Source of the DNA: a bacterium
Lineage (GTDB): Bacteria; Hydrothermota; UBA3072; JAPDKE01
Reading direction: 5' to 3'
Length of the DNA stretch: 64,000 nt
Assembly: GCA_029258725.1 (NCBI GenBank)
Contig: JAPDKE010000012.1
Location: 17,314-81,313 of the forward strand
A program made the position numbers and the translations under genes. This document shows, one piece after another, positions 53,355 to 57,732 of this stretch; the stretch's first letter is position 1; each line of letters starts with the position of its first letter. The notes below the pieces were generated by a model, which saw nothing but the letters and a program-made list of their open reading frames with translations, was not told the origin of the DNA and searched no databases.

Positions 53355-54040
53355 GGAATGCCTCCTTTCTTCAGGAATTCAACAAACTCGTGGAGGTCAT
53401 TTACAACAAGGTCGGGTTCATGAATTCCATCCGTGTTCTCTCCAGTTTTTACAAGAACCGAAAAAATCCCCAGATTCTTTGCCCCATCCACATCAGCATC
53501 CTTTCTGTCCCCTATGTGCACGGCATCCTGAGCATCCATCCCTGCCCTTTTGAGCGCGTAAAGGAAAATACCGGGTTCCGGCTTTCTTACACCCACATCT
53601 ATGGAAAAAACAGGATAATCTATGAGTTCAAGAACACCGAGTTCCTTCAGTTTTTCCTTTTCCACATCTCCGTAGGGAGTATTGGATATTATTCCCGTCC
53701 TTATTCCTTTCCCCTTGAGAAACTCAAGCGTCTCCTTTACGCCAGGGAGTAAAGATACGGGAAGTTTTCTCGTGGTTTCGGGATAAACCCTTCCAAGAGA
53801 GGAATCACCCTTACCCAGGAAAAGGGAAAGGAACCTTCCCGCCTCCTCCACCGGAACCTCCCTGGGATAAAGTGCCTCCACCACCTCTCTTGTTCTCAAA
53901 AGCGCCTCCCTTATCTTTTCCTCCGGGAGGGAGGTTTTTTGCCTGAGGTATTCAATCCTCAGGCTCATCAGATAATCACTGTAATCCTCTCTCGCAGGCT
54001 TTATAAGTGTCCACCAGCAGTCAAAGAATACAACCTTCAT
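53351..54040 (-). CDS. HAD-superfamily hydrolase with non-canonical motif I (FFDCWWT)
   Basis: HAD motifs II-IV (ISNT, K..., GDRKDADVDGAKNLG); motif I lacks second Asp. Confidence 0.6.
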   Translation of the reverse strand: MKVVFFDCWWTLIKPAREDYSDYLMSLRIEYLRQKTSLPEEKIREALLRTREVVEALYPREVPVEEAGRFLSLFLGKGDSSLGRVYPETTRKLPVSLLPGVKETLEFLKGKGIRTGIISNTPYGDVEKEKLKELGVLELIDYPVFSIDVGVRKPEPGIFLYALKRAGMDAQDAVHIGDRKDADVDGAKNLGIFSVLVKTGENTDGIHEPDLVVNDLHEFVEFLKKGGIP

Positions 54041-54304
54041 GGGAATAAATTAAGCATAATTCTTACGAATGTCAATTGGAAAATGGGTCAGGATACTGTG
54101 CTCATACACATGCACCCGGAGAATTTCATACATTTATACAGGGGATATATACAGCCCGGCTTACTGCGCCTGGAAGTTCTTTCCATCAAGGGATGGCGTA
54201 CAGAATAATAGCAGATGCCGGTGGTCCCAACAATGATAACCACGGAGAGGTTGACCTCACGGTGAAATAATCAGAAGAGATATGCTTCGTCATAAATCCT
54301 TATG

Positions 54305-54352
54305 CCACAATATCTTGTGCTTTTTCAGAATTTAAACCACAATATATAGTAT
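54305..54352 (+). promoter_or_regulatory. two NrdR-box-like 16-bp palindromes (CCACAATATCTTGTGC and CCACAATATATAGTAT) 32 bp apart
   Basis: Match to NrdR box consensus acaCwAtATaTwGtgt from memory; located just upstream of nrdD promoter. Confidence 0.6.
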
Positions 54353-54359
54353 TTTCCCC

Positions 54360-54388
54360 TTGACAATCCCTTTTAAATGTTTTATCAT
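54360..54388 (+). promoter_or_regulatory. TTGACA-N17-TATCAT promoter for nrdD
   Basis: Hexamers read directly; 29 nt upstream of AAAGGAGGTGAG-ATG. Confidence 0.5.
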
Positions 54389-54416
54389 TTTTCGAACCCT
54401 GCAAAAAGGAGGTGAG

Positions 54417-56516
54417 ATGGAGAGGCTTGTAAGAAAAAGGGACGGCAAGATTGTTGAGTATGACAGAGGAAGAATTGTAAGGGCGGTCCGTCTTGCAATG
54501 GAGGCGTGTGAGGTGGAGGGGGACCCTGAAGAGATAGCAAAGGCGGTTGAGATTCAGCTCCACCGGACATTTTTCAGAAGGGGGAGTATTCCCCACGTTG
54601 AGGAGATACAGGACCTTGTGGAAAGGACCCTCATGGAGAGGGGGTTCCACGAGGTTGCAAAGGCTTACATTCTTTATCGCCAGAAAAGGAAGGAGGCAAG
54701 GGAGTTAAAGAGTACCCTTGAGGAGGCAGAAAAACTCATAGAGCAGTATATTTCAAGAGAGGACTGGAGGGTGAACGAAAACTCCAACATGAACTATTCA
54801 CTTCAGGGATTGAATTTCTACATTTCCTCTTCAATCACCGCACGGTACTGGCTCAACCGGATATACACCGAGGACATAAAGAGGGCGCACGACGATGGGG
54901 ATTTTCACATTCACGACCTTGGAATTCTTGGACCATACTGTGTTGGATGGGACCTTGAGGAACTTCTGAGAAGTGGATTCAGGGGAGTGGAGGGGAAGAT
55001 AGAATCTGCCCCAGCAAAGCACTTCAGGACCGCTCTTGGGCAGGTTGTAAACTTCTTCTACACCCTCCAGGGAGAGGCAGCAGGGGCACAGGCATTCAGC
55101 AACTTTGATACCCTCCTTGCTCCATTCATCCGCTACGACAGGCTTTCCTATAAAGAAGTGAAACAGGCAATGCAGGAATTCCTTTTCAATCTCAATGTTC
55201 CAACCAGGGTTGGATTCCAGACTCCATTCACAAACATCACCATGGACCTCACTGTTCCGGAAATGTTTAAAGACAGACCTGTCATCTGGGCTGGAAGGGA
55301 GATGGAGAATACCTACGGTGACTTCCAGGACGAGATGAACATGATAAATCGTGCGTTTGCCGAACTCATGATGGAGGGAGATGCTAAAGGGAGAATATTC
55401 ACATTCCCCATTCCCACCTACAACATCTCAAAGGATTTTGACTGGGAGAATGAGAATCTTGAGCCAATATGGGAGATGACGGGTAAGTATGGAATCCCCT
55501 ACTTCTCAAACTTTGTGAATTCTGATATGAAGCCAGAGGATGCCCGCTCCATGTGCTGCAGGCTCAGGCTTGACAACAGAGAACTGAGAAAGCGTGGAGG
55601 AGGATTATTCGGTGCAAATCCATTAACCGGCTCCATCGGGGTTGTTACGATAAACCTTCCCAGAATAGGATATCTCTCCAGGACGGAGGAGGAGTTCTTT
55701 GAGAGGCTTGAGCATCTTATGATTCTTGCAAAGAATTCTCTTGAAATGAAGAGAAAGGTTATTGAGGACCTCACTGAGAAGGGGCTCTATCCGTATTCAA
55801 GGGTTTATCTCAGGGCAATAAAGGAATCACAGGGAAGGTACTGGGCAAATCACTTCTCCACCATAGGGCTTGTCGGAATGAACGAGGCATGCATGAACTT
55901 CCTGGGGGTTCCCATCTCCACACCCGAGGGTAAGGAGTGGGCAATAAAGGTCTTGAAGTTCATGAGGGAAAAACTCAGCGATTTTCAGGAGGAAACGGGT
56001 AATTTTTACAATCTTGAGGCAACCCCTGCAGAGGGTGCATCCTACCGGCTTGCGAAGAAGGATAAGGAGAGGTTTTCCAGAATATACACCCAGGGAGATG
56101 AGGATGCTCCGTATTACACAAACTCTGTTCATCTTCCTGTGAACGAGGAGCACGACATATTTGAACTGCTTGAGCATCAGGACGACCTCCAGGTTCTCTT
56201 TACCGGTGGAACGGTCGTTCACCTCTTCCTTGGAGAGCCTGTGAGGGACTGGAGGGTTGTGAGGGACCTTGTGAGGAGTATCGTTACAAACTTCAGGCTT
56301 CCTTATTTCAGTATAACCCCAACCTTCTCCATCTGCCCTGTCCATGGATACATCCCTGGAGAACATGAGGTCTGTCCATATCCCCACACCGAGGAACAGC
56401 TTAGAAGATACGGTGTTGTGATTGAGATGGATGAGGAGGAACTCTCCCGTCTGCCCCAGGGTGCTTATGTAATAGAGGACGGAGGAGAGAAGAAAACTCT
56501 TTATCTTGACATATAA
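54417..56516 (+). CDS. nrdD: anaerobic ribonucleoside-triphosphate reductase (class III), catalytic large fragment lacking the C-terminal glycyl-radical motif
   Basis: N-terminal ATP-cone (VRKRDGKIVEYDRGRI), class III core; C-terminal Cys/His cluster CPVHGY...CPYPH; terminates TAA before glycyl radical motif. Confidence 0.85.
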   Translation: MERLVRKRDGKIVEYDRGRIVRAVRLAMEACEVEGDPEEIAKAVEIQLHRTFFRRGSIPHVEEIQDLVERTLMERGFHEVAKAYILYRQKRKEARELKSTLEEAEKLIEQYISREDWRVNENSNMNYSLQGLNFYISSSITARYWLNRIYTEDIKRAHDDGDFHIHDLGILGPYCVGWDLEELLRSGFRGVEGKIESAPAKHFRTALGQVVNFFYTLQGEAAGAQAFSNFDTLLAPFIRYDRLSYKEVKQAMQEFLFNLNVPTRVGFQTPFTNITMDLTVPEMFKDRPVIWAGREMENTYGDFQDEMNMINRAFAELMMEGDAKGRIFTFPIPTYNISKDFDWENENLEPIWEMTGKYGIPYFSNFVNSDMKPEDARSMCCRLRLDNRELRKRGGGLFGANPLTGSIGVVTINLPRIGYLSRTEEEFFERLEHLMILAKNSLEMKRKVIEDLTEKGLYPYSRVYLRAIKESQGRYWANHFSTIGLVGMNEACMNFLGVPISTPEGKEWAIKVLKFMREKLSDFQEETGNFYNLEATPAEGASYRLAKKDKERFSRIYTQGDEDAPYYTNSVHLPVNEEHDIFELLEHQDDLQVLFTGGTVVHLFLGEPVRDWRVVRDLVRSIVTNFRLPYFSITPTFSICPVHGYIPGEHEVCPYPHTEEQLRRYGVVIEMDEEELSRLPQGAYVIEDGGEKKTLYLDI

Positions 56517-56529
56517 AAAGGGGGAGAGC

Positions 56530-56697
56530 ATGGAGAAGAAGAAGGTAAAGGTAAGGGTTATAAAGCCCGAGATTTATTCAAGAGTCGTTGGTTATTACAG
56601 ACCTGTCCAGAACTGGAACAAAGGCAAAAAGAAGGAGTTTGAGGACAGGAGGTACCTGAGGATTGATAAAGTCCTTTCAGGGAGTAAGTCTCATTGA
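56530..56697 (+). CDS. stand-alone NrdD C-terminal glycyl-radical peptide (55 aa)
   Basis: YSRVVGYYRPVQNWNKGKKKEFEDR = canonical NrdD glycyl radical motif; own SD AAAGGGGGAG 4 nt before ATG; different frame from nrdD. Confidence 0.65.
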   Translation: MEKKKVKVRVIKPEIYSRVVGYYRPVQNWNKGKKKEFEDRRYLRIDKVLSGSKSH

Positions 56698-57352
56698 CTT
56701 TCCCGGGGTTGTATCCTCCATAGTGTTTATAGGGGGATGCAACTTCCGGTGTCCTTTCTGCCATAATCCTGAACTGGTTCTCCCTGAAAGACTTGCTTCC
56801 ATCCCATCTCTTTCTCCTGAAGAGGTTTTAAAGAAAATAGAGAGAAGGAAGAATTTTATAAAGGGAGTGGAGTTCACGGGTGGGGAGCCTCTGCTTTTTC
56901 CAGGACTCATGGAGATGGTTAAGGAGGTAAAGAAGATGGGGTTGAGGGTTAAGATAGATACAAATGGCTCTCTTCCTGAAAGACTTTCTTCTTTTCTTGG
57001 AATTGCTGATTATGTTGCAATGGACCTGAAGAGTTCCTTTGAAAGGTACTCTGAGGCTGCGGGGGTTGATGTGGACCTGGAGCGTATAAAGGAATCTATC
57101 GAGCTCATTAAAAAATTTCCTGATTATGAATTCAGGACGACCGTGGTCCCAGGGCTTGCAGGGAAGGAAGAGATAGTTGAGGTGGTGGAATATATAAAAG
57201 ATGCAAAAAGATATGTGCTTCAGGGATTCAGGGGGATAAAGACGCTTGATGAAAAATATGAAAAAATACCCCCTCCTTCCAGAACATATCTCGAAGATAT
57301 AAAAAGAGAAATAGAGGGGAAGGTTGGGGAAGTGTTGATAAGGAATGTTTGA
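56663..57352 (+). CDS. nrdG: anaerobic ribonucleotide reductase activating protein (radical SAM)
   Basis: GGCNFRCPFCHN CxxxCxxC motif, SLIDFPG N-terminal motif; TTG start after AGGAGGT; overlaps small ORF by 35 nt. Confidence 0.8.
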   Translation: MIKSFQGVSLIDFPGVVSSIVFIGGCNFRCPFCHNPELVLPERLASIPSLSPEEVLKKIERRKNFIKGVEFTGGEPLLFPGLMEMVKEVKKMGLRVKIDTNGSLPERLSSFLGIADYVAMDLKSSFERYSEAAGVDVDLERIKESIELIKKFPDYEFRTTVVPGLAGKEEIVEVVEYIKDAKRYVLQGFRGIKTLDEKYEKIPPPSRTYLEDIKREIEGKVGEVLIRNV

Positions 57353-57426
57353 ATTTACTTTATCACCCCCGTGGTTCCCATTCTACGGAGTTTCACCTTC
57401 CCTGATTACCTCAAACATGAATGATT

Positions 57427-57693
57427 TTACAGGTATCCCTCAAATTGAGAAAGGTCTTTAAACCAGTGCAGTCCACCTATAACCATGTAAACCTTCCCCA
57501 CACGCTCAGCAGCCTCCACAAAAACCGGAAGCCCCGGATGGCAGTATCCAACAACTATCGCTCCTTTCTGGGGTTCAAGGACCATTGCATGCTCTATTCC
57601 GAATGTAACAGAATCTTTTTCTCTCCGTGCACTAAAAGTGCAAAACCCAGTGTGCAAAGAGTCCCTTTTTACCTGTTTCATTATCATAAACAA
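57427..57693 (-). pseudogene. fragment resembling C-terminal part of an MBL-fold metallo-hydrolase
   Basis: AIVVGYCHPGLPVFVEAA...VYMVIGGLH pattern; no room for N-terminal domain. Confidence 0.25.
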
Positions 57694-57732
57694 TCAAGAA
57701 GCGAAGGGGCACCTGCCATGGTTAAAAACACC

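Follow-up and report, generated by a model that had tools for sequence, protein, structure and literature searches.

Introduction

In the textbook view a glycyl radical enzyme is a single chain, and its C-terminal radical domain has to leave the barrel, by swinging outwards, before the activase can reach it; how the two meet is a long-standing structural question. Class III ribonucleotide reductases (RNRs) are oxygen-sensitive enzymes that supply the precursors of DNA. Those of the canonical NrdD-NrdG type, as in phage T4, E. coli, T. maritima and P. copri, combine a barrel, an ATP-cone and finger-loop cysteines with a metal ribbon before the radical loop, the RVxGY motif, a radical S-adenosylmethionine (SAM) activase and an NrdR-type operator. 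Here we examine a 64,000-nucleotide stretch of DNA from a bacterium of the Hydrothermota (GenBank assembly GCA_029258725.1, contig JAPDKE010000012.1, positions 17,314 to 81,313, hereafter the window), in which the nrdD reading frame stops before the radical motif, and the motif is carried by a separate open reading frame (ORF) of 55 codons followed by nrdG. A preliminary description of the locus had left open whether NrdD is truly made in two pieces, with a radical peptide acting in trans, or whether a frameshift or pseudogenisation has occurred. On the comparative evidence set out below, we consider it about 85% probable that the three genes, nrdD(large)-nrdD(small)-nrdG, encode a working heteromeric class III (anaerobic, glycyl-radical) RNR whose catalytic polypeptide is made as two gene products.

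Stand-alone glycyl-radical domains have been described for pyruvate formate-lyase (PFL), where GrcA/YfiD is activated by the PFL activase and complements a PFL devoid of its radical domain in trans (PMC8683613). According to a review of June 2026, formate lyases are the only enzymes for which such spare parts are known (PMC13450708). Among RNRs, the split class II enzyme NrdJa/NrdJb of Pseudomonas aeruginosa shares with the locus studied here the use of two adjacent genes, with a C-terminal module on the second chain (PMC9669993). It differs in RNR class and chemistry, and in that NrdJb is a large folded domain with redox cysteines and not a radical site. In Aeromonas phage Aeh1, a functional class I RNR is reportedly formed from two polypeptides, the NrdA genes-in-pieces being split within the barrel by a homing-endonuclease gene; at our locus, by contrast, the two genes are not parted by a mobile element, and what the break sets apart is the radical domain.

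Results

The large gene of the window, nrdD (54417..56516, + strand, as for all features given here), begins with an ATG preceded by AAGGAGGTG and encodes 699 residues, comprising an ATP-cone (residues 4-93), the class III RNR barrel, a Cys/His metal site and a C-terminal tail. As the preliminary description had it, the frame closes after the Cys/His cluster and before the glycyl-radical motif, with a TAA at 56514-56516. A 13-nt spacer (56517..56529) with the Shine-Dalgarno (SD) sequence GGGGGAG at 56520-56526 separates it from the small ORF (56530..56697, stop codon 56695-56697), which lies in the +1 frame relative to nrdD and encodes the 55-residue product MEKKKVKVRVIKPEIYSRVVGYYRPVQNWNKGKKKEFEDRRYLRIDKVLSGSKSH. 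The spacing, the change of frame, the dedicated SD and the quoted peptide had thus been read correctly, while two details needed correction: the ATG lies at 56530 and not at 56531, and the gap between SD and ATG is 3 nt rather than 4 nt. The small product consists of a basic N-terminal beta-strand, the glycyl-radical loop SRVVG21YY (Gly21 codon at 56590-56592) and a WNxGKxxEF helix. The third gene, nrdG (56663..57352), encodes a radical-SAM activase of the NrdG2 type of 229 residues (TIGR02495, 194 bits against a cut-off of 131) and does begin inside the small ORF, at a TTG at 56663 located 10 nt downstream of an AGGAGG (56647..56652), so that the two genes overlap by 35 nt.

Profile searches place the break precisely. 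The large ORF matches NCBIfam NF006126 over positions 4-652 of 684 (1050 bits, cut-off 548) and, in Pfam, the ATP-cone (PF03477) together with positions 1-532 of 562 of NRDD (PF13597, E = 7.5e-185), and the small ORF continues the same two profiles at positions 651-682 and 534-560 (E = 1e-8), respectively, bearing out that it encodes the whole NrdD radical motif. Coverage by the two products is contiguous across the break, and the split is clean. NRDD was the only Pfam domain matched by the small ORF, the PFL-type glycyl-radical domain being absent, and no model dedicated to the small protein exists in Pfam, NCBIfam or PHROG. A search of the PDB with a profile of the small protein gave only a weak match, to residues 616-645 of T. 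maritima NrdD (E = 0.5); solved NrdD structures, with the class III RNR barrel fold, were the best fold matches of the predicted model.

The large chain retains the residues expected of an active barrel. The motifs YC175VGW, SMC380C381RLRLD, NLE534ATPAE and YYTNS are invariant across 43 split members and likewise across 20 fused relatives, so that the named catalytic residues, i.e. Cys175, the Cys380-Cys381 pair of the finger loop and Glu534, are kept throughout the split homologues. The large chain ends at residue 699 without RVxGY, which is found on the separate 55-residue chain, and this implies that the radical feature is supplied in trans. In an alignment of 38 stand-alone homologues of the small protein, 16 columns are invariant (E14, Y16, S17, R18, V20, G21, Y22, R24, P25, W29, N30, G32, K33, E36, F37 and R40), while the termini vary freely. 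For the core of the small ORF, the ratio of non-synonymous to synonymous substitution rates (dN/dS) is 0.013-0.108 in the least-saturated close pairs, and purifying selection on both parts is strong.

The division of nrdD is not confined to one assembly. Exact-sequence look-ups recovered the same arrangement of 699, 55 and 229 residues in about 7 independent metagenome assemblies, with a 121-nt junction that is identical in all ten retrieved loci, and the operons, where comparable over their whole length, lie 0-9 single-nucleotide polymorphisms (SNPs) away from that of the window and therefore represent distinct populations. A sequencing error at the junction was rejected on these grounds. Among the best 120 word-index matches to the small ORF all were proteins of 46-91 residues. 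An exhaustive search with a hidden Markov model (HMM) covered 1.84 billion cluster representatives; of its 150 best matches, 149 were stand-alone proteins of 49-109 residues, which puts the recurrence of the split at no fewer than 149 clusters (50% identity), far beyond chance. In the single long protein among these 150 (P0227, 348 residues), residues 4-49 form the radical mini-domain and the sequence after them resembles a peptidoglycan-binding, lysozyme-like protein, which may reflect a phage context or an artefact of gene calling. Seen from the large subunit, the glycine motif is missing from 113 of its 120 closest homologues (at least 68% identity), and 19 of the 21 GTDB loci with a large subunit at least 62% identical to that of the window are split.

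These comparisons bear directly on the possibility that a sequencing or assembly indel, or a recent frameshift, turned a single-chain nrdD into two fragments. The geometry of the window would invite this explanation, since the small ORF is in the +1 frame only 13 nt past the stop, and that frame is open from 56473, so that a 1-nt change anywhere between 56473 and 56513 would join the two ORFs. The orthologues, however, are themselves not continuous; the junction recurs unchanged in distinct strains, the split is kept across phyla, and in cultured strains RefSeq calls the small gene a normal coding sequence (CDS). Nor did we see the relaxed selection or sporadic lesion by which a pseudogene is recognized, as dN/dS values are 0.01-0.11, the catalytic motifs are invariant, and the split clade, with Caldisericia nested inside it, is monophyletic. 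The comparative data refute an indel or pseudogene, which we regard as barely credible, and of the two readings left by the preliminary description it is the genuine two-piece NrdD that the conservation, the purifying selection, the variable junction geometry and the independent assemblies strongly support.

We compared the junction in 19 split loci to learn how the second product is made. The distance between the two ORFs varies from -8 nt, in overlaps of the ATGA type, to +22 nt. All three reading frames relative to nrdD (0, +1 and +2) are used by the small ORF in one locus or another, and nrdD may end in TAA, TAG or TGA, but every small ORF (19/19) has an ATG start behind a strong SD. Frame, stop and spacer are variable and only the ATG and SD are constant, which argues that the small ORF is translated separately rather than recoded; no fixed recoding signal could fit such variation, whereas translational coupling of two cistrons does. 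A fused full-length NrdD could still be produced by programmed recoding, i.e. +1 frameshifting, stop readthrough or selenocysteine insertion, and in 5 of the 19 loci the two ORFs share a frame with a single stop between them, where occasional readthrough would yield a fusion. In those five loci the stop is TAA or TAG and never TGA, five loci have ATGA-type overlaps, the frame offset differs by lineage, no conserved slippery site is present, and in two bacterial loci (L024 and L093) the small gene is not linked to nrdD at all and must therefore be expressed independently. Selenocysteine and other forms of recoding were ruled out by the varied geometry and the in-frame TAA/TAG stops, and we consider this explanation very improbable.

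Protein trans-splicing by a split intein, or a mobile element that once divided the gene, might also account for two halves. Inteins are frequent inside the large subunits of the split clade, and a homing-endonuclease insertion is said to have divided the class I gene of phage Aeh1. At the break itself, however, the ORFs are only 13 nt apart, the large chain holds no Pfam domains other than the ATP-cone and NRDD and the small chain none other than NRDD, and the 42-residue tail and 13-residue N-terminus that flank the break have neither the length nor the constancy expected of intein halves. An intron, intein or mobile element at the break was rejected on the grounds of the 13-nt spacer and the lack of such domains in either product, and rejoining of the halves in this way carries almost no weight with us. 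The inteins of the clade are an observation in their own right: large subunits of 1005-1315 residues with intein/LAGLIDADG domains (PF14528, PF14890, PF05204) are common (P0265, P0316, P0325, P0328, P0330, P0337, P0339, P0346 and others; loci L013, L028 and L041).

Taken at the level of predicted products, these results show two conserved, separately initiated proteins, predicted to be co-transcribed, that together hold every element of a class III RNR, plus the activase.

The region around the break has a sequence signature of its own. Canonical fused relatives carry TPTFSxCPxHGY...CPxCG-xxEVYSRVVGY before and at the glycine loop. In the split clade and in its fused sisters from Caldisericia, the CPxCG element is replaced by CP(Y/K)(P/E)H(T/S)xEEL..(Y/H)G, and 40-50 residues of linker are added that canonical NrdD does not have. 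It is in this linker that the gene is invariably broken, past the metal site and ahead of the beta-strand running into the glycine loop. In the large chain of the window, the metal-site region (56334..56387; C640-P-V-H643 ... C653-P-Y-P-H657) has the ligand set C640-x2-H643 ... C653-x3-H657, a putatively metal-binding Cys/His variant of the four-Cys zinc ribbon of NrdD. One split large subunit (L015) has lost all four metal ligands (SISPTSGY...DPNPQ against SICPVHGY...CPYPH), so that at least one lineage dispenses with the metal site.

The tail that follows (residues 658-699, 56388..56513; TEEQLRRYG-VVIEM-DEEELSRL-PQGAYVIED...TLYLDI) is an insertion relative to canonical NrdD, and split large subunits share its pattern, H(T/S)xEEL..(Y/F)G-strand-helix-AY. 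In an AlphaFold2 (AF2) model of the concatenated chains, with a mean predicted local distance difference test (pLDDT) score of 80, the tail forms a helix-strand-helix-strand unit at a pLDDT of about 76-87, and the VKVRV strand of the small chain is modeled at about 77. We regard the tail as a candidate docking module for the small chain.

Upstream of nrdD, a sigma-70-type promoter (TTGACA-17-TATCAT, 54360..54388, 11/12 consensus matches) is the best promoter-like site within 54000-57700, and no other site with at least 9/12 matches was found on the + strand between the three genes. Directly upstream of this promoter, two NrdR-box-like palindromes are arranged in tandem with 32-bp phasing, at 54305..54320 (CCACAATATCTTGTGC, two mismatches to the consensus) and 54337..54352 (CCACAATATATAGTAT, 32 bp from the first). 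Scored against the NrdR-box consensus, the first is one of the two best matches in the window; since the window-wide count shows no excess over chance (4 found, 6 expected), the case for them as operators is based on their position, their tandem spacing and the recurrence of similar boxes upstream of nrdD in 11 of 14 split loci. The small gene is directly followed by nrdG in 13 of 17 split loci, and the three genes of the window probably form a single NrdR-regulated operon.

The preliminary description had called for a search of related genomes for the same split, and such loci were found in many bacterial phyla. One parallel is that of Brevinematales bacterium NS (complete genome, CP053071), with products of 700, 58 and 210 residues and the same 35-nt overlap. 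The three-gene layout is also seen in Acidobacteriota (708, 63 and 231 residues) and in Myxococcota (689, 63 and 231 residues), in the latter with a large subunit (L096:1935-4004) that has no match to the ATP-cone, unlike those of the window and most relatives. Among GTDB species representatives the split occurs in Fermentibacteria, Thermodesulfobacteriota (Thermodesulfatator, Thermodesulfobacterium, Caldimicrobium) and several unclassified lineages, and the names of protein matches add Aminicenantes, WOR-3, Aquificota and Spirochaetota. Cultured carriers include Thermodesulfatator indicus DSM 15286 and T. autotrophicus; the small gene of T. indicus is an ordinary CDS in RefSeq (WP_013906755.1, Thein_0123) and an 'Uncharacterized protein' in UniProt.

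Small subunits vary at their ends. Cys pairs are present at the C-termini (CACSK, GCCR, KCGC, GCGCG, CGCGA, CGCGS) in Thermodesulfobacteriota (L016, L022, L027, L031, L032, L057) and in P0052 and P0082, and are lacking in the small subunit of the window; they recall the redox-shuttle cysteines of class I and II RNRs. One stand-alone protein of 56 residues (P0121) carries the radical motif as a tandem duplicate (RVCGYFRPVSNWNKG twice).

Neighbour-joining on 638 columns of the barrel, with 200 bootstraps, unites the split sequences and Caldisericia in 200/200 replicates, places Brevinematales at the base in 199/200, and recovers the split set alone as monophyletic in 0/200. Fused NrdDs of 713-726 residues from Caldisericia (L020, L025; P0369-P0377) are thus nested inside the split clade. 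Accordingly, nrdD was either divided once and later rejoined in Caldisericia, or divided independently two to three times. The linker DNA of one of them (L025; AAT GGG GAG ATG GTG) resembles the SD-ATG junction of the window (AAAGGGGGAGAGCATG) and suggests a fossil junction left by re-fusion, a history with which it is compatible and of which it is no proof.

In viral contigs of IMG/VR, stand-alone mini-genes of about 42-61 codons for an NrdD-type glycyl-radical domain are common. Their products typically start M(A/T)KCGxKxE(I/V)YSRV(C/V)GYFRPV..., keeping the last Cys of the zinc ribbon. Among the best 80 IMG/VR loci, 43 had neither an NrdD body (by profile search) nor NrdG around the mini-gene, and in a second scan the same was true of 55 of 79. 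At 20 of these 55 orphans at least 8 kb of sequence was available on both sides, and some loci are whole contigs of 11-18 kb. Orphan mini-genes lie, for example, at L124:3983-4123, L176:3953-4138 and in L180-L254. The neighbours are typical phage genes, e.g. DNA methyltransferases, PAPS-reductase-like proteins, Lar and primase, and one 37-kb contig has two copies of the mini-gene (L184, L202). Annotated GenBank phages gave two matches only, of which MT835493, the one examined, carries an ordinary fused nrdD with nrdG upstream, so that the evidence for orphans comes from the IMG/VR contigs. The fused NrdDs of MT835493 (L178:7389-9821) and of Clostridia-type loci (L023-L092) are about 790-860 residues long, with an extension of roughly 100 residues past the radical domain, which in the phage protein has a CPNC motif and looks glutaredoxin/NrdH-type.

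Discussion

We propose that the class III RNR of this operon is assembled from two chains. The 699-residue large chain would supply the ATP-cone, the ten-stranded barrel, the Cys-Cys finger loop, the Cys/His metal site and the clade-specific tail, and the 55-residue small chain, predicted to be translated from its own SD and ATG and coupled to the translation of nrdD, would supply the radical domain only, i.e. a beta-strand, the SRVVG*YY loop and a short helix. NrdG would abstract the pro-S hydrogen of Gly21 from the small chain, which may be free at that point or already docked. The small chain would then put its glycine loop into the barrel beside Cys380/381 of the finger loop, held there non-covalently, probably with the aid of the large-chain tail and its own N-terminal strand, after which catalysis may follow the course known for single-chain NrdD.

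Two observations weigh against this proposal. In the AF2 model the glycine loop (714-731) and the finger loop (372-402) have pLDDT values below 50, so that docking of the loop is not supported structurally. In addition, two loci from Thermodesulfobacteriota (L022, L028) have no nrdG within 4 kb downstream. Over 4-8 kb downstream of the nrdD-small pair, nrdG was likewise not found in L022, L028 and L259 (Thermodesulfatator/Thermodesulfobacterium), implying that the activase is encoded elsewhere in those genomes.

The preliminary description had compared the small peptide with GrcA/YfiD, and this analogy holds in logic, as a stand-alone radical domain serves a barrel in trans, but neither in role nor in homology. 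Like GrcA/YfiD and Y06I of phage T4, spare parts of PFL, the small protein is a small stand-alone polypeptide that is essentially a glycyl-radical domain (PMC8683613), and by analogy with GrcA/YfiD it would be expected to be activated by its cognate activase and to act on the barrel in trans. It differs in being homologous to the C-terminus of NrdD and not of PFL, in being encoded inside the operon of its enzyme, and in that the adjacent nrdD has no radical domain to back up.

Consequently, the large chain being without a radical domain of its own, the small protein would be an obligate subunit and not a spare part. Were it instead a GrcA-like spare part for some other, full-length NrdD, the large ORF would be inactive or have another role. 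The precedent of GrcA could be cited for this, as could the copies of the small gene away from nrdD in bacteria and in many phage contigs. The bacterial copies belong to two related bacteria, both uncultured, one lying between rhodanese-domain genes (L024:3974-4156) and the other after Fer4, HD and Rrf2 genes (L093:8001-8183), and neither has nrdD or nrdG within 4-8 kb. In the window and in most relatives, however, the small gene sits between a radical-domain-less nrdD and nrdG, often translationally coupled, and the large chain, with its invariant catalytic motifs, is the closest available partner; that 113 of 120 close homologues should lack a radical domain is sensible only if one is supplied in trans. 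A spare-part role for the small protein of the window is thus improbable, and we retain the obligate two-chain enzyme as the preferred reading.

Compared with canonical NrdD, the split enzyme differs in having its radical loop on a separate 55-residue polypeptide, in CPYPH in place of CPxCG, and in a linker of 40-50 residues that contains the gene break. The system would work like canonical NrdD-NrdG, to which it is homologous; it lacks one feature by which the family is usually defined, as its catalytic chain does not itself carry the radical glycine. Its architecture is new for a well-known enzyme, and it is present in cultured organisms. We found no description of a split class III RNR in the open full-text literature, a search that did not extend to subscription-only papers, in which a prior mention is possible; the arrangement thus appears not to have been described before. 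The largest RNR phylogeny dropped sequences shorter than 400 residues (PMC9531940), a cut-off by which the small subunit would be missed. Databases label the small protein 'hypothetical' or with the name of the full enzyme, which matters for annotation and phylogenomics.

What selective benefit a split might bring is a matter of speculation. The small chain may be an exchangeable and cheap radical 'cartridge', with cleavage by O2 costing the cell a 55-residue peptide and not a 750-residue enzyme, and a free radical domain might be more accessible to the activase. The phage mini-genes, which parallel Y06I of T4 for PFL, suggest by the same analogy a possible role as GrcA-like spare parts for the class III RNR of the host. 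A wider, tentative idea, which we think more doubtful than probable, is that the radical domain, as the obligate radical subunit of split-nrdD bacteria, is a cartridge swapped after O2 damage without remaking the 700-residue barrel, and that an orphan version of the module circulates in bacteria and phages and keeps host NrdD running during infection. If true, the module would be without precedent as a radical-donor subunit or spare part of a glycyl radical enzyme other than a formate lyase, and it would be a natural minimal substrate for asking how activases reach a buried glycine.

For the family as a whole, a two-chain NrdD would mean that an essential enzyme can do without covalent attachment of its radical domain. 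It would offer mechanistic and structural work a natural activase substrate of 50-60 residues together with a barrel devoid of a radical domain, with T. indicus DSM 15286 as a cultured source, and it would extend the idea of an 'autonomous glycyl radical cofactor' beyond pyruvate formate-lyase, an extension of which the 2026 review knows no example.

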